64,000 bases of DNA from an uncultured Planctomycetota bacterium (GCA_903901045.1 CAIUPP010000060.1:6661-70660); one strand, 5' to 3'. Counted from the stretch's first letter, positions 9,920 through 64,000 are shown. Numbers and translations are program-made. Notes: a model not told the origin generated them from the sequence alone.

Positions 9920-12900
9920 ATGAAGACGCGAATATTGACGGGCTTGAGGACTCTTGGTGCTGTGATCGCGCTGTTGGCGCTTGCCACAGTAGCGCAGGCC
10001 GCCAACGGAACGTGGAATGTTGACGCCAACGGAAACTGGGGCACGACAGGCAACTGGGCCAGCAGCGTCATTGCTAATGGGTCCGGGTACACGGCAAACT
10101 TCACGAACAATATCACCGCCGACCGAACGGTCAATCTCGACAGCAACCGGACGATAGGCAGCATGATATTCAGTGACAATGGGACGAACGGCAGCGCCTG
10201 GATCCTGAGTTCGTCGGGTAATTCCACGCTCACGATGAGCGGGGGGAGTCCGACCATCGCGGTACGGACGCCGGCCACGATCTCCCTGAAACTTGCGAAC
10301 TCATCTGGCAGCAATATCGTGCTGACTGACGGCGGTTATGGCCAGGAGTTGACTCTGTCCGGCAGCAACGCCTTTGCCGGCAGCGTGACTCTTCAATCGG
10401 GCGTGGTGAACATCACGGGCGATAACCACGGCTCAGCGGGGAGCTTCTATGCCGTTCCTAACGGCGCCGGCGTGCAGTCGACGTTGAAGCTGCAAAGGTC
10501 AGATGCATATTGCCTGCCGACCGGCGTGTTCAAGTTGGACGGACGCACTTCCGGCAGCCTTCTGCGGCTGTACGACAACGACAACGCGACCGTGAAGACG
10601 TATCCAAACAATCTGCAGTTGGGCGGCGATATCTACTGCTATTTCAGGAACCTCAAGTTCAACGGTACAGTGTCATTGCTGGGGAACACCACCCTGCGCG
10701 GATGTACGGACGCCGGGTCCTGCCTGACGCTGCCGGGCGTCATCAGCGGCAGTGGATACAAACTGGACGTTCAGTCGCCCGGCTCCTCCGGCACGGTGGA
10801 CCTGCATCTCTCCGGAAACAATACTTTTAGCGGCGGCACATCGCTCATGCGCTCCAGCCTGTATCTCGGGTCCAATACGGCGCTGGGCACGGGAACTCTC
10901 ACCATAAACCAGCATCCCGTCTATCCATTCAGCCCCTGCCTTTACTCGGAAAACGGCGCGCGTTCGCTCTCCAACGCCATGACCCTCAATTGCAGCGTGA
11001 AAGTGGACGGCTCGTCCAACCTGACCTTCACCGGTCAGGGTACGATGACCGACAATGTCACCGTGACCGTAGCCGGCGGCAGCTATCTGTGCCTGGCCGG
11101 CGGGATGAACGATCCGAACGGTAAGACGCTGACAAAGGAGGATGCCGGCGAACTGGGCGCCAAAGGAACATTCAATTGCGATATTTCCGTCAATCACGGG
11201 TCGCTCCAGAGCGCCGGGACGCTCAGCGTTGCCGGGAGCGACATTGGCACGTTGACGGTCAACGGAAATGTCAACTTCGCTGATGACAATGATGGTCAAG
11301 GGACCTTCTCGGTTGATCTCAACGGGACCAGTGCAGGGACCACCTACGACCAGATGGTCGTCAATGGCACCGTCACCCTTGGCAACGGGTCGTACTATCC
11401 CCACTTGAACGCTGTCCTGAAGACCACGTCGCTGGGCCTTAACGATACTCTCACCATTATTCAAAATGACGGCACCGATCCGATCGTGGGCCGTTTTGAT
11501 GCCGAAGAAGGCTCGTTGGTGCAACTCAACGTCCAGTGCGGCGGGGGAGTGCAATATGCGACGGCGAAGATCAGCTACGTCGGGGGCACAGGCAACGACG
11601 TAACGCTCACCCATTTCAGAACGTCCACCACCCAAAGCTATTTGCCGCGCCGGTGGGAGTACCAATTGGACCTGAAGAATTGGCTCGCCACGCTGGTGAC
11701 GTCGGACTTCAACGTGATGCTCTCCAATATGACCTACAACGACAACTACTTCGCCAATAACGATATGGTGCATGCCGAATGGCTGCTCTTTGACAGTTAC
11801 GGGGAACAGGTGCCTAACCACCGTCTGCTGCGCACACCCTCTTCGGCATTTGCTCTCAGCAGCATTGACCCCCTCGACGGCACAATCTATATGCCGAACT
11901 GGGATAACATCGAGCGGCCCGCCGCGACCGACCCTCGCGCCAATATATGGTGGGCCGGTTGGAACTACAGCGGCAATCCACACAAGGCCTCCGCCAACGC
12001 GACGGCGATCAAGAAACGCGCGCTGGTACAGGTGGCGGTGGACATGATGGAACAGGATGAAGATCACTTCAATAATGTTTACAACAGGCGTTCGGACTAC
12101 CTGGGTGATCAGTTGTGCGGTTGGGCGTACACCTACAAGAAAGGCAAGGACGTTCTTGATGCCGGCACAAAGGCAGCGTTTGAGGCCGGGCTGAAGAGAA
12201 TGTTCACGAAGATTGAAACCTGGGGAATCGAAGGCTTTTATGCCGACATGGACGCCCGCGCGTTGCTCGGGATGTGGTACACCGCCGAGGCGCTCAATGA
12301 CAATGATTTACGGACCCGGTACGCCAGTTTCCGTGACAATGAGTTCATTGCCGGTGAATGGAACTCCGCCGGTTACCTGACGCATGGTGAGGCATTTGAC
12401 GCGGGCTACCAGGGCATTAGTTTCTACTACCTCACATGGCTCGCGCTGGAGTCCAACGACACGACGATTAAGAACCTCGTCGCAGCCAGCAGCAAGTTGA
12501 AGGCCTATCTGACCTTGCCGGAAAACGACGGCGCCTGGTTCTTCGGTCCGAGTCATTTTAACACGGCGACGGACGCCTGCTCGGCGAACGATGAGTGGTA
12601 CACCTATCGTCGCGACGTCGGCACCGGGATGATTACCGACGAGGCGAAGTACCTGGTCTGGACGGGACGGGCGCGAGTGGCGGCGTACTTACATGGCGAT
12701 CTGCTCTCTGTCGCAGACATGAAGACGGAAATCAACACGAATACAGGGAAACTGAACAGTTACACCGGCGGTACAAATGACTACGCTTTCACACAGGCCT
12801 ACAACGGCACGCATACGCCTTGGCACTCTGTGTACTGGGGCACTTGTTGGATGCCCTTCGCGGGAGATGACTTCTACCCCACGGGCTACTACGATTCCCT

Positions 12901-15439: not shown

Positions 15440-16597
15440 ATGAAGCATTCGATATTGCGAAAAGCGACATCACACGTGACCAGCAGAGACCGTCTGCTGG
15501 TCACGTGGTCGTTCCGTGAGCCTGACCGCGTGCCCGTCGAGTTGGAGAACACCGAAGAAGTGCGCCGGCATCCGGCGACTCGGCGATTATGTGAATTCGC
15601 AGATCGGGAGGCGGATAACTTCATCTTTGTCGCTGCGGCGGATTGGGGATTCTTCGGGCTTCAGGCGGTGTCGGCGGAAGAAGTCATCGAGGAGGCGCGG
15701 GGACGGTTTGTCCGCAAGCGGCTGACGTACCGGACCTCAGTCGGAGACTTCTGCCGCATTACGCGGCATCCGTGTGATGTGGCTGACCCGGCGGATTTCT
15801 ATTGGGAACAGCGGTTCATTCGGACCCGTGAGGACATGGACCGGTTGGCTAGTGCGCCAAAAAGCGCCCTTCGTGTGCTTCATCGGGAGTATGCAGAGGC
15901 GGATGCCCGGGTTGGCAGTCGGGGAGTCCCAATTAGCGGGCTGGCGCACCCGTTGGGCAGTTTGGTTCGCATGGCCGATACGGAGTCGGTCTACGGTTGG
16001 CTGGCGACGGAGCCGGCGCTGATCCATAGGTTTCTTGATCGCTGCTATGGGCAGCAGGTAGCAGTCATTGAAGAAATGGGACGTGTCGGGATGCGGCCCT
16101 CATTTATCACGTGGGCACATGAAATGCTCATCCCTCCGTGGATGAGTCCGAGGATGTTTGACGAGTTTGTCTTCCCTTACGACAAGCGGCTCAACGATGC
16201 CATTCATCGGATTGGCGGACGCATGCGCATGCATTGCCACGGCTCCTGCATGAACTTTCTGGAGAAGTTTGCGGATATGGGTGTGGATTCCATCGAGCCG
16301 CTGGAACCGTCCCCATACGGCGATGTAGACTTGGCGGACGCCAAGCGGCGGGTGGGGGATCGAATGCTTCTTTCGGGTAACATCCCTTCCCAGAAGTTTC
16401 CATTCATGTCGCGAAAAGAAGTCCAGGAGTGCGTGAAGGAGGCTATCGCGGCGGCGGCAGGCCACGGTGGGTTCACCCTGCGTACCACAGGGGGCGGACT
16501 CGGAGCGGGAGACTTGGCGGAACCGGCGCTGGCAGGCAAAATGATTGAGAACTACGAGGCGTTCATCGATGCCGCGCTGGAATATGGCACCTATTGA
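15440..16597 (+). CDS. URO-D/MtaA-like family protein (possible Zn-dependent methyltransferase-like)
   Basis: N-terminal '...DRVPV' and 'MRMHCHGSCMNFLEKFADMGVDSIEPLEP' with a His-x-Cys motif, as in the MtaA/URO-D family. Confidence 0.7.
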   Translation: MKHSILRKATSHVTSRDRLLVTWSFREPDRVPVELENTEEVRRHPATRRLCEFADREADNFIFVAAADWGFFGLQAVSAEEVIEEARGRFVRKRLTYRTSVGDFCRITRHPCDVADPADFYWEQRFIRTREDMDRLASAPKSALRVLHREYAEADARVGSRGVPISGLAHPLGSLVRMADTESVYGWLATEPALIHRFLDRCYGQQVAVIEEMGRVGMRPSFITWAHEMLIPPWMSPRMFDEFVFPYDKRLNDAIHRIGGRMRMHCHGSCMNFLEKFADMGVDSIEPLEPSPYGDVDLADAKRRVGDRMLLSGNIPSQKFPFMSRKEVQECVKEAIAAAAGHGGFTLRTTGGGLGAGDLAEPALAGKMIENYEAFIDAALEYGTY

Positions 16598-25900: not shown

Positions 25901-26485
25901 GTTCAACCGCCGGTGAGCTTCGCCAAGGAGCCTGGAGACCGATCTTTGATTGAATTGTCCACATTCCAGAGCGGCGACGTGCTTATCGTAGGCCTTCAGA
26001 AGAACAAGCATTGGGACTTGGACAAGGAGTGCAGACTGAAGGTGGCCCTGGGACAGGCGTACACTGTGCGGAATCTGCTGACCGGCGAGAACCTTGGAGA
26101 GCGCGATCACTTGGATCCGACACTCCGTGGTCTTCGTGGTGCCTTTTTTGCGATGTTTCCGAAGCCGGAACTGGATCCCGAGATAAGCCTGGAACCCGTG
26201 AGCGTGAAACCGGGCCAGACGCTGCATGTGATGATTAGGAGTCAGCAGCAAAACGCCTTTCCTGACAGATACTCCGTACGCGTCTATCGCGTGGGCGACG
26301 CAGCCACGGCCGACTCCAACCATGGTGTGTGCAGTTTCTGGACATCTGCGGCGGTCAAGACTGGTCCCGAATGCAGCATGGCGGTGCCGGTGGCCTATAA
26401 CGACGCCCCTGGCCAGTACCGCCTCGTTCTTCGGCGGGACATGACCGGAGTGGAAAAAGAGTTCACGTTTGTGATCGCGCCGTGA
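22910..26485 (+). CDS. large secreted hypothetical protein (1191 aa) with a GH42-type trimerisation / class-I glutamine-amidotransferase-like domain; putative glycosidase
   Basis: Signal peptide 'MRNARVFLTVLCLVFMSAGVPAAEP'. 'QYKVIVLPYNTAMSDALIGKLSEAVENGGTLVG' resembles the beta-galactosidase trimerisation domain. Confidence 0.65.
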   Translation: MRNARVFLTVLCLVFMSAGVPAAEPMGDPSGYLHVLEKGIVTPHRIIAQQYAKGGLKALCIVPFKLGAREVLEVAERFPFEFEVVTAASHDNIDFSTVHHFSETAQGMGGSLKEKREELKLKLKADYDLIAIGNFQWETLPDDVVSLILQKVENGTGLVVTYDPVIPAPGDGLIVSDFANQQDDYILKETPLAHLDAFRTRKAEEIAGLVRCYKLGKGRILFLRIGKPFAYNGGHAFTPMDEPSCFDRWANNYEYYISFFLKSALFAARKEPDVLFDKPEINVSTGAARLPVSIKGDAAFPLEWTLVVRDAEGRQESTASGKLASKEDRVIEYKLPLLTIGTHFLDVTLVHGRQVVNWAGFGFAVAGDSPIRELALARERFAPGEVVTGKLVFTQRPETCVVELVDNWGRIVARQSDADLRKNGESFVLEPGNNPSLRYRVRALAVNPNQKAESTKSFFVSDNGRGRFQSLYWGSYPPCYLGALAARRLYDAGWHVRFGGAGWMSNAYTVTEPACLFEFEQFDADAKVAEMKASVRQKMKETAGAPAFAYFLGDETIIGRTLDSGINSPALAKFPAYVESLYGNIASLNQRWGTKYTTFAEVKPSCLSDAVAAGAPGRWVVFRKFLSEEFFKVHLAARDTIRESDPSAPTGIEGTYQIEPGQWYNPLSLYRDLGLWGPYPDWLCSMVLKSTRDPSKPYGYWFGGYRDRYSGGTYYGRTAGEYVYYPWKHMMDGANSLWWFSEGGIEGMLDLNLDFTPYYKAYKDDVELVTYSLGPALMGARAQLDSVAVIYSPSSVIAAAAVLRNQDVYQTLGVDLVHTMQGCGIQPAIVDEQDAATGKADLRQYKVIVLPYNTAMSDALIGKLSEAVENGGTLVGSMDVGFMNENGDYRTQSHLNEIFGVTRDINPACPSKKTPLKWQGDLWGTNVQLNIPEAVVGESIKLTTGKAVIATGPVFIANRIGKGEAILLNCVLGVGDPRKPDSTAAVTVWKALFRHAGVQPPVSFAKEPGDRSLIELSTFQSGDVLIVGLQKNKHWDLDKECRLKVALGQAYTVRNLLTGENLGERDHLDPTLRGLRGAFFAMFPKPELDPEISLEPVSVKPGQTLHVMIRSQQQNAFPDRYSVRVYRVGDAATADSNHGVCSFWTSAAVKTGPECSMAVPVAYNDAPGQYRLVLRRDMTGVEKEFTFVIAP

Positions 26486-27648
26486 GAGATGGTTCTGTGG
26501 GGAGCCCGTCCGTGCCCTTGACGCCAAAACAGCGCATGCTCAATGCCTACCGCGGCCTTCCTGTGGACGTTCGCCCGGTGGCCCCGGAGTTCTGGTACTA
26601 TTATCCAGCCAAAGTGCTTAGGGTGGATATGATTCAACTCCAACGCGAAGTTCCGTTCTGGTTCGCGTTGAAAACCACCTTCGAGAAATTCGGTTGTGAG
26701 GGATGGGGTACGGTGTGGTGCGGTCGTGAACAACCCAAACCGGCTTCGGAAACACACGAGTTCATTCAGGTCGCAGCGGATTCCTATGAACTGCGCTCGT
26801 GTGAGAGTTTCGCGGGCAGGACTTTCCGTTCCACGAGCCGCTATAGCAAGGCGGAGCCATCTTGGCAGGTCGAGTACCCCGTGAAGGACCCTTTTACGGA
26901 ACTCGACTGCTATTTCGACATGCGGGTTCAGCATGGTTGCACTCTGACTCAGGCAAAGGCCCTTGAGGCTCGCAACGCCGTTGGCGAGGCATTCCTTCTT
27001 GAATGCGTCCTGCCCGGTCAGTTCACGGACTTCCTGGCCTCAGCCATGGGGTTCGAAATGGCAGTCCAATACCTCATGACCGAGGAATCGGCTAAGTTGG
27101 AGAGTTACCAGAAACGCTACCGTGATTACGTATCGGAGACGACCGGTCTCTTGGCGGCCACGTTGCCGTTTGAGTCGTATTTCATGGGCTGCTCCTACTC
27201 CTGCGCGTCGCTTATGGGGCCACGATTGTGGCGGCAATGGGACGTGCCTATTGTGGCCGCCGCTGCGAGCGCGATCCACCGACACGGGAAATTAATGCAC
27301 CTGCACTATCACGGCAAGTCGTTGGAGAATGCTGCTGATCTCGCCAGCACAGGGGTGGATTGCGTTTGCCCATTCGAGCGTCCGCCCGGTGGCGATGTGG
27401 ACGGGCTGGAAGGCTTGCAGAGAACCCGGGCTCTGATTGGGGAAAAGCTCACATTCAACGGGAATGTGCATACGGTGGCGACGCTCATTCGTGGCACGCG
27501 CAATGATGTTCGGCGTGAAGTCGGTCAGATAAAGTCCGCCTTTGCCGATTCCCACCGGCTCATCATCGGTACGGGTGACCAAGTCGGACGCGAGACGCCT
27601 GAGGAGAATCTTCACGTGATGGTTGAGGCGGGCCATGAAGCTTCGTGA
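26482..27648 (+). CDS. URO-D/MtaA-like family protein
   Basis: 'LTPKQRMLNAYRGLPVDVRPVAP' N-terminus plus 'LMHLHYHGKSLENAADLASTGVDCVCPFERPP'. GTGA overlap with the upstream gene. Confidence 0.7.
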   Translation: MRDGSVGSPSVPLTPKQRMLNAYRGLPVDVRPVAPEFWYYYPAKVLRVDMIQLQREVPFWFALKTTFEKFGCEGWGTVWCGREQPKPASETHEFIQVAADSYELRSCESFAGRTFRSTSRYSKAEPSWQVEYPVKDPFTELDCYFDMRVQHGCTLTQAKALEARNAVGEAFLLECVLPGQFTDFLASAMGFEMAVQYLMTEESAKLESYQKRYRDYVSETTGLLAATLPFESYFMGCSYSCASLMGPRLWRQWDVPIVAAAASAIHRHGKLMHLHYHGKSLENAADLASTGVDCVCPFERPPGGDVDGLEGLQRTRALIGEKLTFNGNVHTVATLIRGTRNDVRREVGQIKSAFADSHRLIIGTGDQVGRETPEENLHVMVEAGHEAS

Positions 27649-31671: not shown

Positions 31672-32412
31672 ATGCGCAGACAATTGAAGGCTGTCGTTGT
31701 CGTACTTGCCGCATTCGCGCTTGGCGTGCCGGGCATTCGGGCGGCGGAGAAGGACGCGAGCCTGCTCGTGCAGTATGATTTTGACGAAGGCGCGGGCGCC
31801 GTCGCCAAAGATAACAGCGGCAACGGCCTCAACGGCCAGATACTCAAGGCCGATTATGTCAAGCACGGCGACGGGTTTGCCCTGGAGTTCAAAGGGGCAG
31901 GGTGCGTTCTGGCTCCCGCGAATGCCGCGCTCGACGCGCTCGGGAAGCCCGGCAAGAGCTACACCGTCGAATTCTGGTTCAAGAGCCCCGGCGCGGAGAA
32001 TCCTTCGATGAGCGAGAAGTGGCCGTCCGGCTCCAACTACCCCTGGGCCATCCGTGGGCCGTACGCCTCCGACAACCATATCGAATTCGCCGTCTACGAT
32101 GCCAAGAATAACAAGGCCGCCGGCGCCGTGGTCCCCGACCCGGCGTTCAAGGACAACGCGTGGCATCATCTCGCCGCCGAACGGGACGCGGTGAAGGGGC
32201 ACTTGATGCTCTTCATCGACGGCGTCCTGCGCGGCGATGTGGTGGATAACTTGAAGGATGTTGACCTTTCCAATGCCGGGAGCGTCTGCATCGGGGCGCG
32301 GAGTTGCGCTGATGCGGCGGTCAGTTACGGGTTTGTCGGGCAGCTCGACGGTTTCCGCGTCTACAGCCGCGTCCTCAGCGAGGCGGAAGTCAAAGCCCAC
32401 GCCGGCAAGTAG
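31672..32412 (+). CDS. secreted LamG / concanavalin-A-like lectin domain protein
   Basis: Signal peptide 'MRRQLKAVVVVLAAFALGVPGIRA'. 'LVQYDFDEGAGAVAKDNSGNGLNGQ' and 'LDGFRVYSRVLSEAEV' are LamG-type motifs. AGGAGGG RBS. Confidence 0.7.
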   Translation: MRRQLKAVVVVLAAFALGVPGIRAAEKDASLLVQYDFDEGAGAVAKDNSGNGLNGQILKADYVKHGDGFALEFKGAGCVLAPANAALDALGKPGKSYTVEFWFKSPGAENPSMSEKWPSGSNYPWAIRGPYASDNHIEFAVYDAKNNKAAGAVVPDPAFKDNAWHHLAAERDAVKGHLMLFIDGVLRGDVVDNLKDVDLSNAGSVCIGARSCADAAVSYGFVGQLDGFRVYSRVLSEAEVKAHAGK

Positions 32413-36192: not shown

Positions 36193-36278
36193 GCACTGAA
36201 GGCGTGAGTTAGGACGCGAACCATGTCGCCCGCCCGTTGCGCGCGCGGCGGGCCGCATTTGGCATGAAAGGAAGTTGC

Positions 36279-37622
36279 ATGTCCACGAGAACCCGACCCA
36301 ACTCCGCCCTGGTCCTTGCGTTGGCGCTGCTCATCGCCATTGCGGGGGGGGCCGGTTATTGCGTTTGGACAGAAAGCGCCCTGGCTGCTGAGAATGCTGC
36401 GCCCGCGAAACTCTACTACTGCCCGATGCACCCCAGCTATACTTCCAACAAACCGGGGCAATGCCCCATCTGCAATATGGACCTTGTGCCGGTCGTGGAG
36501 AAGGGGGCCGCTCCCGCGGGGAAGGGCGAGCCCGCCGGGCATACCGCGATCATGCTGGATTTGCATCAGCGCCAGATGATCGGCGTGCAAATCGGAACGG
36601 TCGAGAAACGGCAGGTATCCAAAACGATTCGCGCTGTGGGGCGGGTGGATTATGACGAGCGGACGCTCTCCGTGGTGAGCCTGAAGTTCGGCGGCTGGGT
36701 GGAGGAGCTGATGGTTAAATCCGTCGGCGAGCCCGTCGCCAAAGGGCAGCCGCTTTTCTCCATATACAGCCCGGAATTGCTGGAGGCGCAGCGGAATTAC
36801 CTGCTGGCGCGCGATTCGGCGCGCATCCTCGGCGAGAAGGCTTCCGCCGATACGAAGGGGATGGCGGACGAGGCGCTGCGCGGCGCGCGCGAACGGTTGC
36901 TCCTGTGGGACTTCAGCGAGGCGCAACTCAAACAGATTGAGGAAAAGGGGGAGCCGCAGAAGCGAGTGACCATCTGCGCCCGGACGGAGGGGGTGGTCAC
37001 TGCGCGCAACATCCTCCTGGGCGCGTACGTCGAAGCGGGCAAGGAGTTGTACACCATCGCCGACCTGCGGACGGTCTGGATGAACGCCGATATCTATGAA
37101 GATGAATTGCCGCTGGTGAGCGTGGGGCAGAAGGCGCAGGTGCTGCTCTCCTCCATGCCCGGCGCTCCGCTGGCCGGCAAGGTGGCGTATATCTACCCCT
37201 ACCTCAACGATCAATCCCGGACGGTGCGCGTGCGCATGGAATTCCCCAACCCCGACGGCAAGCTCAAGCCGGGGATGTACTCCACGGTCCTGCTGGCCAC
37301 GGACATCGGGGAGCAACTCGTGGTGGATGAGAATGCCGTGCTGTTCGCCGGGGAGCACAACATCGTGTTCGTGGACAAGGGGGAGGGAGTCCTGGAGCCG
37401 CGCGAGGTGACCATCGGCGTGGCGGCCGAGGGGATGCGGGTGATCCTGGCGGGGTTGACCGAGGGAGAGAAGGTGGTGACCAGCGGCAACTTCCTGGTGG
37501 ACTCGGAAAGCCGGCTGAAGGCGGCCATCGCTCAGAGCGCAACGAAGATGGCCGCGCCTCAGGAGGTCGGGCCGCAGCCGCAAGAACCGGCCTCAGGCAT
37601 GCCGCCAATGCCGGGAATGTAA
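36279..37622 (+). CDS. efflux RND periplasmic adaptor subunit, CusB/CzcB-like, with an N-terminal Cys/Met/His metal-binding motif
   Basis: 'YYCPMHPSYTSNKPGQCPICNMDLVPV' heavy-metal-binding domain, followed by membrane-fusion-protein barrel-sandwich hairpin regions. Confidence 0.85.
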   Translation: MSTRTRPNSALVLALALLIAIAGGAGYCVWTESALAAENAAPAKLYYCPMHPSYTSNKPGQCPICNMDLVPVVEKGAAPAGKGEPAGHTAIMLDLHQRQMIGVQIGTVEKRQVSKTIRAVGRVDYDERTLSVVSLKFGGWVEELMVKSVGEPVAKGQPLFSIYSPELLEAQRNYLLARDSARILGEKASADTKGMADEALRGARERLLLWDFSEAQLKQIEEKGEPQKRVTICARTEGVVTARNILLGAYVEAGKELYTIADLRTVWMNADIYEDELPLVSVGQKAQVLLSSMPGAPLAGKVAYIYPYLNDQSRTVRVRMEFPNPDGKLKPGMYSTVLLATDIGEQLVVDENAVLFAGEHNIVFVDKGEGVLEPREVTIGVAAEGMRVILAGLTEGEKVVTSGNFLVDSESRLKAAIAQSATKMAAPQEVGPQPQEPASGMPPMPGM

Positions 37623-37647
37623 TCCAGCCGCGTTATCGAGGGCGTTC

Positions 37648-40600
37648 ATGATTGAGCGAGTCATCGAGTTCTGCGCGCGCAACAAGTACCTGGTGATCAT
37701 CCTCGCCGCGGTGGCGGTGGTCATCGGGATCTACTGCGTGCGGCACATTCCGCTCGACGCGATCCCCGACCTGTCCGACACACAGGTGATCGTCTACTCC
37801 CGGTGGGACCGCAGCCCGGACATCCTCGAAGACCAGGTCACCTACCCCATCGTCTCTTCGCTGCTGGGCGTGCCGAAGGTCAAGGCCGTCCGCGGTTTCT
37901 CCGACTTCGGCTACTCCTTCGTCTACGTCATCTTCCAGGACGGGACGGACATTTACTGGGCGCGCAGCCGCGTGCTGGAGTACCTGAGCAAGATTCAGCC
38001 CAGCCTGCCGGAGGGGGTGCGCACGGAACTGGGGCCGGACGCCACCTCGGTCGGATGGGTGTATCAATACGCCCTCGTGGACAAGAGCGGCAAGCAGAAC
38101 CTGGGGGACCTGCGCAGTTTCCAGGACTGGACGCTACGATACTGGCTGCGCGAAGTGCCGGGCGTCGCCGAGGTGGCCTCTGTCGGCGGCTTCCAGAAGC
38201 AGTACGAGGTCAACATCGATCCCAATGCCCTGCTGGCCTACAACGTCCCCATCGGTAAAGTGGTGGAGGCGATTCGCGCCGGGAACAACGACGTGGGGGG
38301 GCGGCTGGTCGAGTTCCACGGCGCGGAGTACATGGTGCGCGGGCGCGGCTACGCGAAATCCATCAAGGACATCGAGGAAATCAGCGTCGGCGTTGACAAA
38401 AACGGCACCCCCATCCTTGTGAAGAACCTGGGGCACGTGGTGCTGGGGCCGGACATCCGGCGCGGCGTCGCCGACCTGGACGGCATCGGGGACACCGCAG
38501 GCGGCATCGTGATCATGCGCCAGGGCGAGAATGCGCTCAACGTCATCCAACGCGTCAAGGCGAAGATTGAAGAGATCAAACCCTCCCTGCCGCCGGGGGT
38601 GGAGATTGTGACCACCTACGACCGCTCGACGCTCATCAAGGAATCCATCGGCACGCTCAGGCATGAACTGATCGCGGCGCTCGTGATCGTCAGCCTCACC
38701 ATTCTGCTCTTCCTCTGGCACATTCCCTCCGCCATCGTGCCGATTGTCACCATCCCCATCTCCGTCCTGCTGGCGTTCATCCCGATGTACCTGCTGGGGG
38801 TGAACGCGAACATCATGTCCATCTCCGGCATCGCCATCTCCATAGGCGTTCTGGTAGATGGCGCCATTGTCGAGGTGGAGAACGCGTACAAGAAACTGGA
38901 ACTGTGGCAGTCGGGGGGGCGCGTGGGGGATTTCCACGAAGTCCGGCTGCGCGCGCTCAAGGAGGTCGGCCCCTCCGTCTTCTTCTCGCTCCTCGTGATC
39001 GCCGTGGCGTTCATCCCCATCTTCGCCCTCGAAGAGCAGGAAGGGCGGCTCTTCAAACCGCTGGCGTACACCAAGAACCTTGTCATGGCTATCGCCGCCG
39101 TGCTGGCGGTGACGCTCGACCCCGCCGTGCGGATGCTCTTCGCGCGGATGGAATGGAAGCATTTCCGCCCGCGCCCGCTCTCCTGGCTCTGGAACCAGAT
39201 CAGCGTCGGCAAGTACTATCCCGAAGAGAAGCATCCCATAAGTCGCATTCTGTTCTGGCTTTACGAGCGACCGTGCCGCTTCGTCATCCGCCACCGGACC
39301 ATCGTGGTCGTGGCCGCGCTGCTGCTCGTGCTGACCACGATCCCGGTCTACCTTCACCTCGGCAGGGAGTTCATGCCGCCGCTGTGGGAAGGGGATATCC
39401 TGTATATGCCCACCACCATGCCGGGGCTCTCGGTGACCGAGGCGCGCGACCTGATGCAGCGGATGGACCAGGTGCTGATGACCGTGCCGGAAGTGGAGCG
39501 CGTCTTCGGCAAGGCCGGGCGCTCCGATACGGCAACGGACCCCGCCCCCTTCTCGATGATGGAGACGACCGTCCTGCTCAAGCCCCCCTCGCAATGGCGG
39601 ACGAAGGAGCGATGGTACTCCAATTGGCCGGGCTGGACTCATGGCCTGTTCCGGCCGATCTGGTCGGACCGACTCAACAAGGATGAGCTGATTGCGGAAC
39701 TCGACCGCAAGATGCAATTCGCCGGGGTGGCCAACGCCTGGACGATGCCGATCCGGGCGCGCATCGATATGCTCACCACCGGCGTCCGCACGCCGATAGG
39801 GATCAAGATTCTCGGGGAGGACCTTGCCAAGACCGAGGAGATCGGCGCGCAACTGGAAGCCATCATCCGAGAGCAGCCCGGCACGCGCAGCGTCTTCGCG
39901 GAGCGCACGGCGGGGGGGTACTTCCTCGACTTCGACCTGAAACGCGAGCAACTGGCCCGCTATGGGTTGACCGTCGACGAGGCGCAGACCGTGATCCTCA
40001 CCGCGATCGGCGGGGAGCCGGTGACGACGACCGTCGAGGGGCGCGCGCGGTACACCGTGAGTGTCCGCTACGCGCGGGACTTCCGCAGCGACTTGAACGA
40101 CCTGCGGCGCGTGCTCGTGCCCACCGCTTCGGGCGCGCAGATTCCGCTGGGGGAGCTGGCGGAGATCAAAATGACCCTCGGCCCGGGGATGATCCGCGAC
40201 GAGAACGGCATGCTGGCCGGATATGTGTACGTGGATACGGCCGAAAGCGACATCGGCGGGTATGTCGCCCGCGCCAAGGCGGCGGTTCAGAAGCAGGTGC
40301 AATTGCCCGCCGGCTATGCGCTTCAGTGGAGTGGGCAATATGAAAGCATGATCCGCGTCAAGGAACGGCTGAAGGTGGTCGTCCCGATCACGCTCTTCAT
40401 CGTCGCCATTCTGCTCTACATGAACACGAAATCGGCGGTCAAAACCACCATCATCCTGCTGGCGGTGCCGTTCTCCGCCATTGGGGCGATCTGGCTGCTG
40501 TACTTCCTCGGGTACAACATCTCGATTGCGGTCTGGGTGGGGCTTATCGCCCTGATGGGGCTGGACGCCGAGACGGGGGTGTTCATGCTCCTGTTCCTCG

Positions 40601-40938
40601 ACCTCTCGTATTATGAGCGCGTGCGCGAGGGAAAGATGAAGACCTTCGAGGACCTGACCGAGGCGGTGGTGCATGGCGCGGTCAAGCGCATCCGGCCCAA
40701 GATGATGACGGTCTGCGCGGCGTTCATCGGGCTGATGCCGATCATGTGGTCGATGAGCGCCGGCTCGGACATGATGAAGCGCGTGGCTGCGCCGATGGTG
40801 GGCGGACTCGTGACCAGTTTCATCCTGGAGCTTCTGATCTACCCGGCGGTCTATACGGCATGGAAATGGCGCTTCGAGATGAAGCGCGGCACGGTGGACG
40901 TGAGCACGCTGCCGTCGCCGCATTTGAGAGGGCATTAG
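37648..40938 (+). CDS. heavy-metal efflux RND permease, CusA/CzcA family (HME-RND)
   Basis: 1096 aa. Start 'MIERVIEFCARNKYLVIILAAVAVVIGI' typical of CusA/CzcA. 12-TM architecture with large periplasmic loops. Confidence 0.9.
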   Translation: MIERVIEFCARNKYLVIILAAVAVVIGIYCVRHIPLDAIPDLSDTQVIVYSRWDRSPDILEDQVTYPIVSSLLGVPKVKAVRGFSDFGYSFVYVIFQDGTDIYWARSRVLEYLSKIQPSLPEGVRTELGPDATSVGWVYQYALVDKSGKQNLGDLRSFQDWTLRYWLREVPGVAEVASVGGFQKQYEVNIDPNALLAYNVPIGKVVEAIRAGNNDVGGRLVEFHGAEYMVRGRGYAKSIKDIEEISVGVDKNGTPILVKNLGHVVLGPDIRRGVADLDGIGDTAGGIVIMRQGENALNVIQRVKAKIEEIKPSLPPGVEIVTTYDRSTLIKESIGTLRHELIAALVIVSLTILLFLWHIPSAIVPIVTIPISVLLAFIPMYLLGVNANIMSISGIAISIGVLVDGAIVEVENAYKKLELWQSGGRVGDFHEVRLRALKEVGPSVFFSLLVIAVAFIPIFALEEQEGRLFKPLAYTKNLVMAIAAVLAVTLDPAVRMLFARMEWKHFRPRPLSWLWNQISVGKYYPEEKHPISRILFWLYERPCRFVIRHRTIVVVAALLLVLTTIPVYLHLGREFMPPLWEGDILYMPTTMPGLSVTEARDLMQRMDQVLMTVPEVERVFGKAGRSDTATDPAPFSMMETTVLLKPPSQWRTKERWYSNWPGWTHGLFRPIWSDRLNKDELIAELDRKMQFAGVANAWTMPIRARIDMLTTGVRTPIGIKILGEDLAKTEEIGAQLEAIIREQPGTRSVFAERTAGGYFLDFDLKREQLARYGLTVDEAQTVILTAIGGEPVTTTVEGRARYTVSVRYARDFRSDLNDLRRVLVPTASGAQIPLGELAEIKMTLGPGMIRDENGMLAGYVYVDTAESDIGGYVARAKAAVQKQVQLPAGYALQWSGQYESMIRVKERLKVVVPITLFIVAILLYMNTKSAVKTTIILLAVPFSAIGAIWLLYFLGYNISIAVWVGLIALMGLDAETGVFMLLFLDLSYYERVREGKMKTFEDLTEAVVHGAVKRIRPKMMTVCAAFIGLMPIMWSMSAGSDMMKRVAAPMVGGLVTSFILELLIYPAVYTAWKWRFEMKRGTVDVSTLPSPHLRGH

Positions 40939-40939
40939 G

Positions 40940-42310
40940 ATGGCGGGAATGCGCACAGGCGTCCTGGCGGCCGGCGTGATCGCGATGCTCATCCTGGCGA
41001 CCGGCTGTCCCGCGCTTCGTCCGAAGGGCGAGAAGGAGGAGCGCAACCGCATGATGGAAGCGGGCAGGGACTACGTCAAGCCGATCGAAATCCCCGCGCT
41101 CTCGGCAGTCCCCGCTCCGGAGGAGTACGTGCGGCTCGCATTTGTCACCAACTCGAACCTGCAGGCGCGCTACTGGGAATGGCGTTCCGCCATCGAACGC
41201 GTGCCCGTGGTATCCAGTTGGCCCAATGTGGCCGTGCCCTTCAGCCTGCTGCTCGGAGCAGGGGGGGGCGGGCTGTGGGACCGCACCACGCTGGGGCTTG
41301 CCAACGACCCGATGACCGACATCCCGTATCCCACCAAGCTCACCTCGGCGGGGCGCAGGTCGCTGCAGGAGGCGCGCGCGGTGGGGCTGCGCTTCGAGGC
41401 CGCCCGTTTCGAGTTGCAGCGGGCCGTGCTGACCACCTGCTATGACCTGGCGCTGCTGGGTGAATCGCTGCGAATACAGGAGGAGAATGTCTCGCTGCTG
41501 CGCCTGACCGTCCGGCAAATGGCGAGTCGCGTGGGAACGGCGGGGGGGGCGCAGCAGGAACTGCTCAAAGCCCAGACCGATCTCGATCTGGCCGAAAATG
41601 AACTGGCCAACCTCCAGTCGCAGCAGGCGCCGCTGGCGGCGAAGATGAACGCGCTCATCGGGCGCGCGGCATCCGAGCCGGTTCCGCTGCCGCCGGCGCT
41701 CCCGGCGCCGCGGACGCTCCCGCTGGCAGACGACCAGCTGATCCAACTCGGGGCGGAGCGCAACCAGGAACTGGCCGCGCTGGCGCGCGACGTCGCCGGC
41801 AAGAGGGAGGCCCTGACCTTGGCGAAGCGCCAGCGCCTGCCCGATTTCAGTCTTTCGGCAAGCCTGACGGGGGGCGTTACGGGAGCCCTCGGCGGGATGG
41901 TTGTCCTGCCGACGCGGCGCGAGGCGATTCAGGCCGGGATCAAGCAAGCGCGCGCTGAACTTCAGACCGCCAGGGCGGCGCAGGCGCAATATCAGCGCGA
42001 CCTCGCAACCAGCTTCGTGCTGAACCTGGTGCTGCTGCGGAATAACGAGCGCCAGATAGCGCTCTTCCAGGATGCCATCATCCCTCGCGCGCGGCAGATC
42101 ACCAGGGTTGTTCAATCCGCCTACGCTTCGGGCGGGGCGCGGTACACGGAACTGCTGGACGCGCAGCGGACGCTCCTGGAAGCGCGGCTGACCGTCGCGC
42201 AACTGCAAATGGAAAGAGAGAAAGCGTTGGCTTCCATTGAGGCCACCGCGGCAGTGGATGTGGCCGCTATGAAATCGCCATGTGAGTCAGAACATGCGTC
42301 TAGTCAGTGA
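40940..42310 (+). CDS. TolC-family outer-membrane efflux factor (CusC-like)
   Basis: Lipoprotein-type N-terminus 'LILATGCPAL'. Duplicated alpha-helical/beta-barrel repeats. Confidence 0.8.
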   Translation: MAGMRTGVLAAGVIAMLILATGCPALRPKGEKEERNRMMEAGRDYVKPIEIPALSAVPAPEEYVRLAFVTNSNLQARYWEWRSAIERVPVVSSWPNVAVPFSLLLGAGGGGLWDRTTLGLANDPMTDIPYPTKLTSAGRRSLQEARAVGLRFEAARFELQRAVLTTCYDLALLGESLRIQEENVSLLRLTVRQMASRVGTAGGAQQELLKAQTDLDLAENELANLQSQQAPLAAKMNALIGRAASEPVPLPPALPAPRTLPLADDQLIQLGAERNQELAALARDVAGKREALTLAKRQRLPDFSLSASLTGGVTGALGGMVVLPTRREAIQAGIKQARAELQTARAAQAQYQRDLATSFVLNLVLLRNNERQIALFQDAIIPRARQITRVVQSAYASGGARYTELLDAQRTLLEARLTVAQLQMEREKALASIEATAAVDVAAMKSPCESEHASSQ

Positions 42311-55587: not shown

Positions 55588-58500
55588 TTAGGGTGGCCAC
55601 TGCACCTCTAGTTGAGGCCATTGAGTCCGCGGGCAAAGAAGGACAATCACGCGGTCGCCTTGTTCCGCTTGATAGCGCATGGAATGCATGACGACGGCGC
55701 GGTAGATGCTCATAGTCCGCGACACCGGATCGGGAGGGGCGGAGAAGCCGCCGGCCGCGAGCGCGGGGAAGGTGTCGGCGCGCAGTCCGCGGTCGAGTTC
55801 ATGACAGCGGCGCTCGGCATCCACCACCACGCAGACCAGGCGCGCGTTCCCGCGCTGAACGATCGCCACCTGTGCGCGGCCCTTTCCCGCAACGCGTTCC
55901 ACCGCGGCGGCGATCTCGCCGTTGAGTCCTTTGCGTGAGAATTCCATCTTGGACGATTCGGTCGCGGGGCGTGCCGCCATGACGGGGGGCATACTCCCTT
56001 GCGCGCTTGGCTCCGGAGCAAGCTGACTCGGGAGCCCCTCGGCTGGCTCAGGGCAGGGGACCAGCTCCGTCGTCGGTTCAATCCGGCATGCGATGTCGGC
56101 TCTGGTCAGCGTCGGGATGCTGATCTGCAAAACACCTGCCGCGGAGGCGGCGGAAGCGGTGGCGATGGGCACTGCGCCGCTGCTCCAAACATCGTACCAG
56201 CCGACGCTGTAACTGCCGTCGGCAAGTCCGGAGAAGGTCAGGTGCTGACCGCCCATTGTCCCGCTCGTGTTTTGCACCCATGCGAAGGCGCGGCCATCCC
56301 GGGCCATCCCCCAGCCGCGGCAGGAGGAACTGTCCAGCGAGAGAGAAGCCGGGCTGCCGGTGGAGTCCGCAAGGTAATCCAGCCCGGAAATGAAATCCGC
56401 CAGGGATTTCAAGTGGTTGCTCATCTCCGGGGTCAGCATGGGATAGTTCCCGGCGTCGCACCAGAGCAACGGCGTCATCGCCGCGCCCGACGCGACGCCG
56501 GCCCAGAGACCGTTGTGGAGATGCGCCGGCTGCGTTGCGCCGTTGACCACATCGCCGCCAAATTCCGTATGGAACCCCGGCAGGCCGCTTGCTCGCAGGG
56601 TGGTCGTTTGCGAGGCGATGGTCGCCGCAACCGCGACGTTATTGTTCTTCTGCTGATACGTGTCCGCCACCCGCATATCCTGGCCGCTGTTCCATGAGGG
56701 CTGGTCCATCTTGCTCACAGTTATCGGGTATTGGCCGCCGCCGTTGTTCCGGAACGGGTCCAGTTGGCGGAAGCACTCGCGCGCGGAGGCGCACCAAGCC
56801 TCGGACTGCGCGCGGTTCTGCACGTAGCCGGAGGTGCCTTCGAGCTCGCACAGCAGCACCCATCCCGCGATGGCGCGGCTCGACCCCCAGCGCGCATTCA
56901 CGTAGCGGAAGAAGTTCTTCTGGTAGCGCCACTGCGGCGTATCGCTGCCGTACGCGGTCGTCTTGAAAAAATCGCTCGCCGAGCAGATGGATTTGTACGC
57001 GTTGTTCGACCACCATCCCTGGCCCCAGGGGTGGCCGGTGTCGCGAAGCTGGCCGTGCGACCAGATCGTCGGGAGGAGGCTGATTCCCGCCGCCTCGGCG
57101 CGCGACACGACGCCGTCGATGTACGCGCATGCGGCCTGATTATAGTTGCCGATGCCCTGTTCCGTGTTCTCGATGGGGGCGCGCTCGGCCGGGGAGGGAT
57201 CCTCCGGCGACGCCCAGGAAGGCTGATCCCAGGGAGCCGCAAGCCAGAAGCTCAGCAGGTTCTCCCGCGACGCGGTCATGTTCGCGAAGGCCGGCTGCTC
57301 GACATCCGCCTGCCAGCCGGTGTTGTGGCCGACGGCGAAGAAGGACTGCCCGCTCGCGAAGCGCAGGTTGCGGCCCGAAATGCGCGCCCAACCCGGGCTG
57401 CTCGATGCCGCGCACGTGAAGGCCCCAGCGCTCCATGTCGCCGCGCCACTCTTGTCCCGGGCGCGGACGCTGAACGTCCAGTCGCCCACCTCGCCGGGCG
57501 CGAAGCGGACCAGCCAGTGCTGCCCGTCGTAGAACCCGTTGATGCTCCAGACCGACTCGCCGGGGCTCGTGAAGGTTGCCGACAAGTCCAGGCCATCCGC
57601 GGCGGGGTCCGGCTCGTAGAACTTCGTGGCGGCGACGTTGGAGAGCGTGACAAGCAGCTCCAGCGTGGCGTATTTCGGAACCGCGGCGCCCGGCGGCTCG
57701 GAGATCGCGACATTCGCTATGGCGAGCGTGGCGGGGGGCTGGGTTGTGGTCGTGGTTGACGTGGTCGTGGTGGTCGTCGTTGTAGACGTAGTGCTGCTGG
57801 TCGTTGTCGTCGTGGAGGTGGTCGGCGGCACAGTCGTCGTAATGGTGCTGGTCGTAGTGGTTGTGGTGGTAGAGGACGACGAGGTGGTTGTAGAGGTCGT
57901 AGATGTGGTTGAGGTCGTTGGCGGCAGCGTCGTGCTTGTGGTGGTCGTACTTGTCGTGTCAGACGTTGTCGTCGTAGTCGTAGTCGAGGAGGAAGAGGTT
58001 GTCGTGGTCGTCGATTCTGAGGAAGTCGTGCTGCTTGTCGTCGTCGTGGTTGTGGTTGTTGTCGTGGTTGTTGTTGACTCCGTTGTGGTTGTCGTGGAGG
58101 TGGTCGGAGCCAGCGTCGTCGTAGTCGTGCTTGTCGTCGAAGTGGTGGTCGTAGTGGTGGACGGCAGGGTCGTGGTTGTGGTGGTCGTTGTCGTGGTCGG
58201 CGGCAGAGTGGTTGTGGTCGTGGTCGACGTGGTCGTCGTGCTGGTCGTAGTCGTGGTGGAAGTCGTTGTTGTGGTCGGCGGTTCTTTCGTGATGGTGACT
58301 TCATATCCGGCCGACAGCGCGGATCTCCCTTTGCCGTATTCCGCAACGATCATGCAGCGCTGGTCTGAGGGGACGGACTTCGCCGCGAGCCGCCCGCTTT
58401 TGTCCATCCGGGCGAATGAGGAGAACGCCCTCCATCGGGCCTCGCCCGTGACCTCCGCCGTCGTTCCGACGTCGTACTGCGCGATGCAGTGGTATTGCGC

Positions 58501-58935
58501 CGAGTTCTGCTGCTGGAGTTCCCCGGGGCCGGTCACGCTGATGGAGGCCGGCGTCCCGATGGCAAAGGCATGATCGCTGAAATCCTCCACGGCGTCATCC
58601 GGCGTGCTCACGCGAATCCGGTAGCCGACCCCTTTCGCGTAGGCCGCTTGCCCCGGCGAGCTCCATTTCCCAACCTCCCAGAGCCAGTGGTTCCTGCCCT
58701 TGACGATGGCGAGGTCCCAATGGTTTCCCCTGGAATCGTAGAGCCCGACCTTCACCTTGTCATTGTTCGGCAGGTTGTTCGCCCACTGGACGTCGTATTT
58801 CTGCCCCCATTCGACGGTCAGGCCCGGTTGGGAGGGTTGCACCACCTGCAGGGCGCGGGAAAGATCGGGAGCGGCGATGGCAGCGTTGCCCGCTGAGAGG
58901 AGGAGAAGAAGGAAGGCTGCGGCGATGCGGAACAT
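55588..58935 (-). CDS. secreted multidomain protein: Kre9/KNH-like N-terminal domain pair, ~230-aa Thr/Ser-rich linker, TIM-barrel glycoside-hydrolase-like domain (DUF4038/GH5-like). The C-terminal ~120 aa may be a separate ORF.
   Basis: Signal peptide 'MFRIAAAFLLLLLSAGNAAIAAPD'. 'LRFASGQSFFAVGHNTGW...AACAYIDGVVSRAEAAGISLLPTIWSHG' is GH-like. The tail 'MEFSRKGLNGEIAAAVERVAG...' (55588-55947) has a different composition. Confidence 0.65.
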   Translation of the reverse strand: MFRIAAAFLLLLLSAGNAAIAAPDLSRALQVVQPSQPGLTVEWGQKYDVQWANNLPNNDKVKVGLYDSRGNHWDLAIVKGRNHWLWEVGKWSSPGQAAYAKGVGYRIRVSTPDDAVEDFSDHAFAIGTPASISVTGPGELQQQNSAQYHCIAQYDVGTTAEVTGEARWRAFSSFARMDKSGRLAAKSVPSDQRCMIVAEYGKGRSALSAGYEVTITKEPPTTTTTSTTTTTSTTTTSTTTTTTLPPTTTTTTTTTTLPSTTTTTTSTTSTTTTTLAPTTSTTTTTESTTTTTTTTTTTTTSSTTSSESTTTTTSSSSTTTTTTTSDTTSTTTTSTTLPPTTSTTSTTSTTTSSSSTTTTTTTSTITTTVPPTTSTTTTTSSTTSTTTTTTTTSTTTTTQPPATLAIANVAISEPPGAAVPKYATLELLVTLSNVAATKFYEPDPAADGLDLSATFTSPGESVWSINGFYDGQHWLVRFAPGEVGDWTFSVRARDKSGAATWSAGAFTCAASSSPGWARISGRNLRFASGQSFFAVGHNTGWQADVEQPAFANMTASRENLLSFWLAAPWDQPSWASPEDPSPAERAPIENTEQGIGNYNQAACAYIDGVVSRAEAAGISLLPTIWSHGQLRDTGHPWGQGWWSNNAYKSICSASDFFKTTAYGSDTPQWRYQKNFFRYVNARWGSSRAIAGWVLLCELEGTSGYVQNRAQSEAWCASARECFRQLDPFRNNGGGQYPITVSKMDQPSWNSGQDMRVADTYQQKNNNVAVAATIASQTTTLRASGLPGFHTEFGGDVVNGATQPAHLHNGLWAGVASGAAMTPLLWCDAGNYPMLTPEMSNHLKSLADFISGLDYLADSTGSPASLSLDSSSCRGWGMARDGRAFAWVQNTSGTMGGQHLTFSGLADGSYSVGWYDVWSSGAVPIATASAASAAGVLQISIPTLTRADIACRIEPTTELVPCPEPAEGLPSQLAPEPSAQGSMPPVMAARPATESSKMEFSRKGLNGEIAAAVERVAGKGRAQVAIVQRGNARLVCVVVDAERRCHELDRGLRADTFPALAAGGFSAPPDPVSRTMSIYRAVVMHSMRYQAEQGDRVIVLLCPRTQWPQLEVQWPP
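57725..58290 (-). repeat. low-complexity Thr/Ser-rich linker coding region (ACN/TCN codon runs)
   Basis: The plus strand shows a (GTCGTGGTNGTN)n-like periodicity. The protein has ~230 aa of T/S with sparse LPP/E/D. Confidence 0.8.
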
Positions 58936-59115
58936 CTCAGTCCCTGCCTTGGTCACAACGAAGATCGGTCGGCGCGTCGCTCGATAGCCTAGCAGAACGG
59001 CGGGCAAAGTCAACGCGACAGGGCGAAAAAGAAGCAACGCAAGAGAAGAGATGAAACATCCCTCCGTCTTGCGTTGCCCTTGCATCGTGCGAAACGAAAT
59101 CAGTGTGCGTTCGGG

Positions 59116-61662: not shown

Positions 61663-63831
61663 TCACGGCGTTATGGTCACATCGAGCGCCCCTGCGAACG
61701 CTGACTTTCCCTTTCCGTACATGGCTTGCAGTGTAAACTGCGTGGGGGCCGGAACGGGCGTCGTGGACAGAACTCCCGCCCTGCGCAACTGCGCGTAGAC
61801 GGTCGGGAGGCATTTCCACTTCGCATCGCTGGACCGGGTGACCCCTTCCGGAAAAACGTCATAGAAGGCCGTGCAGACATATTGGACGGAGTCGGACCCT
61901 CCCTTGACGGCGGACGGTCCTTTGAGGCTCACACCGGTCAGTCGGGCGACTGCAAATTGCGCCGCACTCTCGCCTGTCGCCTTGCCGTCAATTGTGCAGA
62001 CTCGTATCTTGTAGTCAATTCCGCTGTTGTATGACCGCCCGAACTTCGGGTCCCATTTGCCGACCCGCCATCGATATTTCCCGGTATTCTTTACCGCAGG
62101 GGCAATGACGCAAGCGGTTCCGGCTGCATTGCATAACTCAATTCGGACGCGCGCATTGCTTGCCAGACCGGCCGATCTCCATTGGATTGTGCAGTCCTGC
62201 CCGACTTCCATTATGTTGCCGGCCTCGGAAGGGGAGAGCACGGTTATGCCCATGCATTCCGGAGTGCCGAGGAAGTACTCTGCCAGGAAGACGTCGCTCA
62301 GGCCGGCGTTCTCCAAAATCACCGATTCGCCATAGCTGTCATTCAACGTTGCTGTTCCCCAAAAGGAGCCGCCGACAAACAGCGTGCCGTCTGAGAATGC
62401 GATGGAAGGGGCGAAAAGAAGTTTTCCATTGGCGACGCGCTACGCTCCGGCCAGGGCGCCGTTGCCGCTATAGATTGCCAGGAAGATGCTATTTTCTCCC
62501 GCCGCGCTGAGAGTCGTTTCATTCGCCTCGCCCGGGCCGAATGTTATTGAGCCTTCAAAGGTGCCCGTCACAAGGATGGAATCGCCGGAAAGCGCCGCGA
62601 TCCCCGTGCCCCTTTCATCCTTGGAGCCGCCGGCGCGCTTTGCCCACGCTAGGGAACCATCACTGTTGTACTTTGCCAGGAAGAGATCGTATCCCCCCTC
62701 GGCCGAAAGGACGGTCTCGTTCGCTTCGGCCGCCCCGAACGTAACCGCTCCCATGAACCCGCCAGTCAGCATGAACGCTCCGTCTGGCAGCGTCCCAACG
62801 TGGAAGTAGGCGCCGCGCTGAGTGTCTCCGGCGAAGAGGTCCAGCGACTTGACCCAGGCCAGAGAGCCCTCGGCGTTGTACTTCGCCAGGAAGATGGCGT
62901 TCGTGGGAATGGACGGCAGCGTCGTCTCGTTCGGTTCCCCTTCGCCGAATACTACGGGGGGAGAATAGGAACCACACACGATGGCGCCGCCATCGGAAAG
63001 CGCGGCGGCAATTTTTCCGCACGAGCCGCCGTATCCTCCGGCTTGACGCGCCCAGGCGAGCGTGCCGTCGGAGTTGTACCTAGCTGCGAAGACGAACGGG
63101 CGAGAGGGGGAGATAGCCAGAGTCGTCTCGTTCGCCTCGCCTTTGCCGAATGTCGCCGCGCCATCGCACCAGCCGGTTACGAGGATGCCTCCCTCTGCGA
63201 GCGCCGCCAGGGCTTGACCCGTGCATTGTTGCCGTACGTTGCGTGGATCATCGGTTGCGGCATGCGATGCTTTCGCCCAGGCCAATGTCCCATCCGGGTT
63301 ATACTTGGCGACGAACATCCTGATTAGTAACGAGGACGGATAGTCCTCGTCGAACGCCGTCTCATTTGCCTCGCCTTGCCCGAAAAGCGCCCGTCCCCTA
63401 AAGCTGCCCGTCACAACGGATGAGCCGTCAGAAAGCGCGGCGACCGCGAAACTGTAGTCCTCTTCGGGTGAGCCGGCGCGCTTTGCCCACGCCAGGGAAC
63501 TATCCGTATTGTACTTCGCCACGAAGATATCACACTCCCCGGCCGCCACGAGGACTGTCTCATTCAATCCCCCATGGCCGAACGTCGCGATGTCCCTGAA
63601 CGTGCCGCTCACGACAGCGCCTCCCCCCGCAAGCGCAGCGACAGTCTGCGGACAACCCCAGCCGGATCCCGATTGGCTTGGTGAACCCAAATGATCCTCG
63701 CTTGTTCCCCCGGCGGACTTCGCCCATACGAGTTGCGCCTCCGGCTCTTCGGCTTGCGCCGTTACCTGGGTGACAACTGCAAACAATGGGATGCAGAACA
63801 CGAGGAAAATGGCCGTCTTATACATCTTCAT
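61663..63831 (-). pseudogene. SBBP beta-propeller-repeat + Kre9/KNH-like domain secreted protein, interrupted by a single in-frame TAG (plus-strand 62440-62442). Pseudogene, sequencing error or stop-codon readthrough.
   Basis: Signal peptide 'MKMYKTAIFLVFCIPLFAVVTQVTAQA'. 'FLAKYNSDGSLAWAKRAGG' repeats of ~50 aa. The same frame continues after the TAG with the repeat periodicity ('...LAGA*RVANGKLLFAPSIAFSDGTLFVGGSF...'), and the KNH-like domains follow. Confidence 0.5.
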
Positions 63832-64000
63832 GCCTCCTTAGAAACCGCACCTTCCCAAGCTGCATGCGGTTTCATCCCCCTGGAACCCACCCAACGGCAT
63901 CCTATGCCTTAAATCCGCCAATAGCAAGCCACGTCGGGATGAATTGGATAATGCGGAACATTGCCCCGGTGTTGGCGCAGTCGGTGGCGTAGAATGTGCC

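Follow-up and report, generated by a model that had tools for sequence, protein, structure and literature searches.

The 64-kb window analysed here (the whole stretch of DNA from an uncultured Planctomycetota bacterium) carries at its far right a gene that is most probably a young pseudogene, in which a real and recent nonsense allele interrupts the coding sequence of a secreted protein composed of a beta-propeller and two Ig-like domains. In the window sequence, a 722-codon frame on the minus strand (63831-61663) is interrupted once, by a TAG at 62442-62440, where the translation runs ...FLAIYSGNGALAGA, stop, RVANGKLLFAPSIAFSDGTLFVGGSF... The observations made directly are the stop itself, its position within a domain, the sense codon at this place in homologues, the presence of the same TAG in other assemblies, and the use of TAG as a normal stop in the window.

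The preliminary description of this DNA had already noted a single in-frame TAG in an otherwise open frame, and the translation that it quoted was reproduced exactly. Downstream of the TAG, 258 codons are open, which has a chance probability of 1.9e-4 at the local base composition; the other two frames contain 10 and 5 stops. GC3 is the same on the two sides of the TAG (0.69 and 0.71). An ORF finder splits the gene into two pieces, a 463-aa ORF (62440-63831) and a 227-aa ORF beginning at TTG 62346. A frameshift was considered as an alternative and rejected, as the +1 frame around the stop encodes a non-propeller peptide (59-aa ORF, 62343-62522). For the beginning of the gene, ATG 63825 is more likely to be the true start than ATG 63831, because the spacing to the putative Shine-Dalgarno motif is 7 nt for the former and 1 nt for the latter (Table 1). 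Motifs of the GGAG/GAGG type precede about half of the genes in the window, the propeller gene included.

Table 1. Features of the interrupted propeller gene, with positions counted from the first nucleotide of the window.
Feature	Position	Strand	Description
Shine-Dalgarno motif AAGGAGG	63833..63839	-	7 nt before ATG 63825, only 1 nt before ATG 63831; read from sequence
Predicted Sec signal peptide (MKMYKTAIFLVFCIPLFAVVTQVTAQA/EEP)	63754..63831	-	basic N-terminus, hydrophobic core, AQA motif; low pLDDT in the model; inferred from sequence
Upstream ORF	62443..63825	-	461 aa from ATG 63825, 463 aa from ATG 63831; signal peptide, repeats 1-6 and first residues of repeat 7; DUF5122; 100% identical to P0001 (461 aa)
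In-frame TAG stop	62440..62442	-	codon 464 of 722 in the frame; within the opening 'LAWAK'-type strand of propeller repeat 7
TTG used by gene callers as start of the 227-aa 'gene'	62344..62346	-	inside blade 7; only GGGG at -14, no AGGAGG
Rest of propeller repeat/blade 7 (residues 465-519), stranded after the TAG	62275..62439	-	most homologue alignments reach query residue 519; repeat-profile domain 7 at 477-519; pLDDT 30-48 when modelled without the rest
First C-terminal Ig-like beta-sandwich domain	61990..62262	-	PF10342 at 19.9 bits, below cut-off; pLDDT >90; conserved module
Second C-terminal Ig-like domain (Big_2/LigA-like)	61666..61983	-	ends in the conserved LDVTITP; best PDB match Leptospira LigA, 8gyr
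TGA, original stop of the full-length gene	61663..61665	-	P0204 terminates at the same aligned residue

Sequence analysis of the joined protein revealed seven repeats downstream of the predicted signal peptide, with the motif [FV]xAKYNxDGxLAWAK. The repeats are of the delta-60/DUF5122 type and measure 57-76 aa, not about 50 aa as had been estimated at first. PF17164 (DUF5122, delta-60 repeat) scored above its cut-off of 27, the 463-aa part reaching 27.8 bits and the joined protein 35.9 bits. The initial label SBBP was not borne out, since PF06739 (SBBP) gave no match at E <= 1 in the Pfam scan; some homologues do carry PF06739 in precomputed annotations. More than 2,000 database proteins match the propeller, with E-values down to 1e-188 and a best non-self identity of 40-47%, and many of them bear the JGI name "uncharacterized delta-60 repeat protein".

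The repeat pattern had been described as continuing across the stop, and a repeat-unit profile built from 25 homologues and applied to the joined protein (hmmsearch) agrees: it finds seven units, the seventh of which (residues 477-519) lies after the TAG. Unit 7 scored 24.5 bits, compared with 51-90 bits for the others. Decay of blade 7 as the sign of an old pseudogene was considered and rejected: in P0204, an intact homologue, repeat 7 scores equally low (28.1 vs 72-85 bits), so that the low score of unit 7 reflects a trait of the subfamily and not decay. As a separate observation, repeat 7 is far more divergent than repeats 1-6 both in P0204 (residues 424-480) and in this gene (62275-62439, minus strand), at about 25-28 vs 50-90 bits, and in family members that have no tail the scores of the seven repeats are similar. 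It seems that attachment of a C-terminal tail went along with remodelling of the last blade.

The consensus of the family has a lone "LxWAKxAGG" strand at the start and "DIFIARF" at the end, a layout that would be expected if the N-terminal strand closes the last blade. In the present protein, the end strand of blade 7, 'DVFLAEYF', should accordingly pair with the N-terminal strand 'QLVWAKSAGG' and close the ring. The two halves were modelled separately by AlphaFold. The model of the N-terminal fragment is all-beta (pLDDT 82.7, pTM 0.83), with confident blades and with the closing strand 'LVWAKSAGG' unstructured (residues 30-60, pLDDT 44-69). In the model of the C-terminal fragment, the blade-7 residues are disordered (pLDDT 30-48). 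The top PDB matches of the predicted propeller are themselves propellers, the best being CylK (PDB 7RON, 7FH6; Foldseek E = 1.5e-16, TM 0.48-0.59).

What the stop replaced can be approached both within the gene and among its relatives. Lys or Arg had been claimed for the equivalent position of every other repeat, and the six other repeats indeed read K, K, K, R, K, K; in the repeat register at the DNA level, the TAG lies opposite AAG, AAG, CGT, AAA and AAG. Among homologues, 256 local alignments (about 120-200 proteins) span the TAG site, most of them running on to residue 519 at the end of the propeller, with K at the site in 196 and R in 19 (together 215/256). P0204 (761 aa) is the only homologue with the same full architecture, and the only one to share both the divergent repeat 7 and the tail. 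It is a single polypeptide, collinear with our protein across the stop from the signal peptide to the terminal LDVTITP, and it has a Trp opposite the stop ('GALSAAWRLGG' aligned with 'GALAGA', stop, 'RVANG'). Repeat 7 of the present gene otherwise lacks the near-invariant Trp and has a Gly at position 462. Distant homologues thus have a sense codon for Lys, Arg or Trp at the TAG site.

The candidates for the ancestral codon are TGG, by a G-to-A transition, and AAG, by a transversion, each one step from TAG. The preliminary description had named AAG and CAG; TGG, also one transition away, had been omitted and is a serious candidate. None of the collections searched returned a close orthologue (>50% identity), so only distant relatives inform the age of the mutation and the choice between Trp and Lys for the ancestral codon. 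A profile of repeats 6-7 plus the tail identified no further protein of the same architecture.

The downstream frame ends in a C-terminal module that AlphaFold models as two beta-sandwich domains (pLDDT >90), with the Ig-like region of Leptospira LigA as the best PDB match. The label KNH is weak: the PF10342 (Kre9_KNH) match scores 19.9 bits (E = 0.0013) against a gathering cut-off of 24.6. The modelled fold is an Ig-like sandwich. A word-index search with the C-terminal 203 aa recovered only the query itself. An exhaustive HMMER search with the tail identified 1,221 relatives, in many of which the module is found at the extreme C-terminus of secreted proteins with differing N-terminal parts (RCC1 propellers, beta-helices, PKD, C39-like peptidase). 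All invariant residues of the module are kept in the downstream frame. The two-Ig module (61666-62274, minus strand) is without a Pfam family of its own, and a second copy, 33% identical, is present at 58288-58851 (minus strand), near the N-terminus of the adjacent 1165-aa DUF5060 protein (55588-59085). It may serve various proteins as a shared anchoring or binding module.

The gene is represented in other public data. Products of 461/463 aa and 227 aa are present on JGI, ENA, Logan and NCBI contigs. Over 1.6-3 kb, seven loci (L001-L007) match the window at 100% identity apart from one SNP in L006, and all have the TAG, as does a JGI metagenome contig (L021). Among the sources of the TAG-bearing contigs are BioSamples SAMEA6872760 and SAMEA6872761 and differently named assemblies (k141_ contigs, METAG scaffolds, a Logan contig), some of which may share reads. 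The SNP (position 517 of L006, window 62823) changes ACT to TCT, giving T337S in the propeller. The nonsense allele is common to at least two haplotypes, because L006, which is from another sample, differs by T337S yet keeps the TAG. Three more contigs, available as gene calls only, have the same gene pair with the same spacing. A pattern search with a wildcard codon at the site found a single JGI metagenome contig (L021), which has the TAG allele only, and the same search of viral contigs returned nothing. For this organism, public data show no allele other than TAG.

A sequencing or assembly artefact that conceals a sense codon is very unlikely on this evidence. The gene is internally repetitive, which could in principle confuse assemblers, and the public contigs may in part have been assembled from shared reads. 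However, identity among the DNA repeats within the gene is only 60-85%, with no exact repeat around the TAG, making mis-assembly unlikely. The identical TAG is found in eight readable contigs, and matching gene calls point to it in the three others; these contigs represent two or more BioSamples, and one has its own SNP. The search that allowed any codon at the site could have returned a sense allele and gave TAG only. The error option raised earlier is effectively excluded at the assembly level. A further alternative takes the gene calls at face value: several pipelines give 461 + 227 aa, as would be expected of two functional cistrons, with the secreted six-blade propeller working alone and the 227-aa ORF translated from TTG 62346 by reinitiation or an internal start. 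The intact downstream frame with its two confidently predicted Ig-like domains is in keeping with such an arrangement, as are a few short proteins among the representatives that consist of the C-terminal module alone, e.g. P0161 (195 aa). Nevertheless, we regard it as unlikely. The TTG falls within blade 7, at a distance of 31 codons from the TAG. It probably does not serve as a start: an AGGAGG-type Shine-Dalgarno motif is missing there, in contrast to the true start with its AAGGAGG. It is this TTG (62346-62344) that had been taken for a Met 32 codons downstream; the first in-frame ATG lies 62 codons 3' of the TAG. Between the TAG and the TTG, no promoter-like site was found. The downstream product would have no signal peptide, although the module otherwise belongs to secreted proteins, and would carry about 24 orphaned blade residues, in a region that models as disordered; the closing N-terminal strand of the truncated propeller is left unpaired in its model. 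Moreover, the only homologue of the same architecture, P0204, is a single polypeptide. Repeat register, homologue and structure models agree with the original suggestion of one gene rather than two.

The other alternative is that the UAG is decoded, by a suppressor tRNA, as pyrrolysine or through context-driven readthrough, giving a full-length protein, perhaps beside the short form. Past the stop there is no break in the frame, the repeat register or the conserved residues, and all samples show this one allele. The base after the stop is C, and UAG-C is reportedly a comparatively weak termination context in E. coli (Poole, Brown and Tate 1995), so that some readthrough product may arise by near-cognate decoding at a low level. 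Against decoding, TAG terminates about 8 other genes in the window: stops of 39 likely genes, picked by GC3 signature and mostly with Pfam support, are TAG in 9, TGA in 21 and TAA in 9. TAG clearly acts as a stop in this genome at the end of the gene for an AcrB-family (RND) pump (40936-40938), since the gene for an outer-membrane factor begins 2 nt further on and in a different frame. The 64-kb window contains no tRNA gene and no Rfam family, none of its 51 scanned ORFs has a Pyl-related Pfam match, and no other conserved gene in it was seen to be split by TAG. For the 141 nt around and after the stop, the predicted fold is no more stable than that of shuffled sequences (MFE -42 vs a mean of -47.2 kcal/mol, z = +1.29), giving no indication of a stimulatory RNA structure, and homologues have the ordinary residues Lys, Arg or Trp at the site. 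Global reassignment of TAG was rejected in view of the ordinary TAG stops and the lack of a second split gene in the window. Programmed readthrough or suppression, the remaining option of the preliminary description, is thus unsupported, and we consider decoding of the UAG very unlikely. Still fainter is the prospect that the UAG has been kept because partial readthrough yields two secreted isoforms, a short propeller-only form and a minor full-length form with blade 7 and the Ig-like tail; if true, regulatory stop-codon readthrough would have an example on a bacterial chromosome.

We therefore return to the recent nonsense mutation, which among the three explanations offered at the outset is the one that the evidence supports. 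The original gene would have encoded a Sec signal peptide, a seven-bladed delta-60/DUF5122 beta-propeller and two tandem Ig-like domains. One base substitution (TGG to TAG or AAG to TAG) would have turned codon 464, where blades 6 and 7 meet, into a stop. Ribosomes would terminate there, and we infer that they do so efficiently. The truncated product would be without blade 7, so that the ring could not close, and without the Ig-like tail; it is presumed to be non-functional, and the downstream 258 codons would no longer be usefully translated. At the level of the domain, the stop interrupts a structure that runs on unbroken in homologues, whose codon at this place is a sense codon, and at the level of assemblies it is present in eight contigs.

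The mutation appears to be young, because the downstream frame and its conserved residues are intact, GC3 is unchanged, and no second lesion, whether a stop or a frameshift, is present. Continued expression of this part would likewise leave the downstream frame intact. Since all recovered copies of the locus are nearly clonal, selection on the downstream part is not measurable.

With respect to the organism, the adjacent gene for an ABC-F ATPase has 73% amino acid identity to genes in two Candidatus Brocadiia MAGs (Planctomycetota); in both MAGs, the propeller gene is absent within 10 kb of the ABC-F gene. The window encodes a DUF1559 prepilin-like protein, glycoside hydrolases, sugar-modifying enzymes and a CusABC-like efflux system, a gene content that fits a heterotrophic planctomycete-like bacterium. 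The efflux operon (36237-42310, plus strand) comprises genes for CusB/HlyD-like, AcrB-family and outer-membrane-factor proteins. The DUF1559 protein (8413-9735, plus strand) has an N-terminal methylation (prepilin-like) motif, and directly 3' of its gene lies an 1817-aa ORF (9920-15373, plus strand) with a good coding signature and no Pfam match. Upstream of the propeller gene, partly past the end of the window (63902-64000, minus strand; L002 1-1502), there are a Bac_transf sugar transferase, of a family of polysaccharide priming enzymes, and an 82-aa ORF that ends with TAG. The propeller gene may be located in a surface-polysaccharide or surface-protein neighbourhood.

Base composition changes abruptly near position 32000, from a GC content of 0.57-0.60 (GC3 0.66-0.80) on the left to 0.62-0.66 (GC3 mostly 0.80-0.88) on the right, and the GC3 of the propeller gene at the far right (0.70) is like that of the left-hand class. 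The break could be an island boundary, a horizontal acquisition or a chimeric join. Three URO-D paralogues (2982-4061, minus strand; 15440-16597 and 26482-27648, plus strand) are part of a carbohydrate-utilisation cluster (GH4, DUF4838, GFO/IDH/MocA, GH42-like, xylose-isomerase-like TIM barrels), which is an odd setting for this uroporphyrinogen-decarboxylase-like family. A candidate for a second TAG-split gene at 4110 was rejected: the URO-D match in the downstream ORF starts at residue 82, which corresponds to position 68 of 346 in the profile, indicating separate genes. The ORFs 4110-7106, 2982-4061 and 1743-2954 (minus strand) are consecutive in one frame, separated by TAG and TGA, and look like separate genes that share the frame by chance.

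For annotation, the 461-aa and 227-aa ORFs that are currently called should be merged and flagged as one disrupted gene, and the 227-aa database "protein" should be seen as an artefact that arises from a TTG start codon located in a propeller blade. Planctomycete-like bacteria have a recurring surface-protein architecture in which a delta-60 propeller is joined to a conserved two-Ig tail, and the loss of such a protein may reflect the ordinary turnover of adhesin-like genes. Beyond annotation the case has little significance, and it would gain a wider one only if readthrough were demonstrated.

The closest comparison is with the delta-60/DUF5122 (PF17164) proteins of other uncultured bacteria. 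At 35-47% identity, they share with the present protein the signal peptide, the seven repeats of 60-70 aa, the [FV]xAKYNxDGxLAWAK motif and the divergent seventh repeat, but they are uninterrupted at the position of the stop, where they have K, R or W. P0204 also shares the two-domain C-terminal tail ending in LDVTITP and differs by an extra insert of about 90 aa between propeller and tail. To our knowledge, no member of this propeller family has a known function. The Friedel-Crafts alkylating enzyme CylK resembles the predicted propeller in being a beta-propeller and is its best structural match. In contrast to our protein, it has an N-terminal calcium-binding domain and no Ig-like tail, and the sequences are only 17-20% identical; there is no hint of a common catalytic activity. 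The C-terminal 200 aa are modelled as two beta-sandwich domains like the tandem Big_2 domains of Leptospira LigA (PDB 8GYR), at 12-13% identity, and the match to the Kre9/KNH-like Ig domain (PF10342) falls below the Pfam cut-off.

With UAG recoding systems (pyrrolysine, amber suppressor tRNAs), the gene has in common an in-frame UAG after which the coding frame continues. It differs from them in that pyl and tRNA genes are absent from the window, nearby genes use TAG as an ordinary stop, and the site is occupied by standard residues in homologues. The closer parallel is with ordinary bacterial nonsense pseudogenes, which likewise have one in-frame stop in a conserved domain, sense codons at that place in relatives, and no recoding signals. 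Compared with these, the present gene is distinguished by being very young, by having no further downstream lesions, and by carrying the only allele seen in the sampled population.
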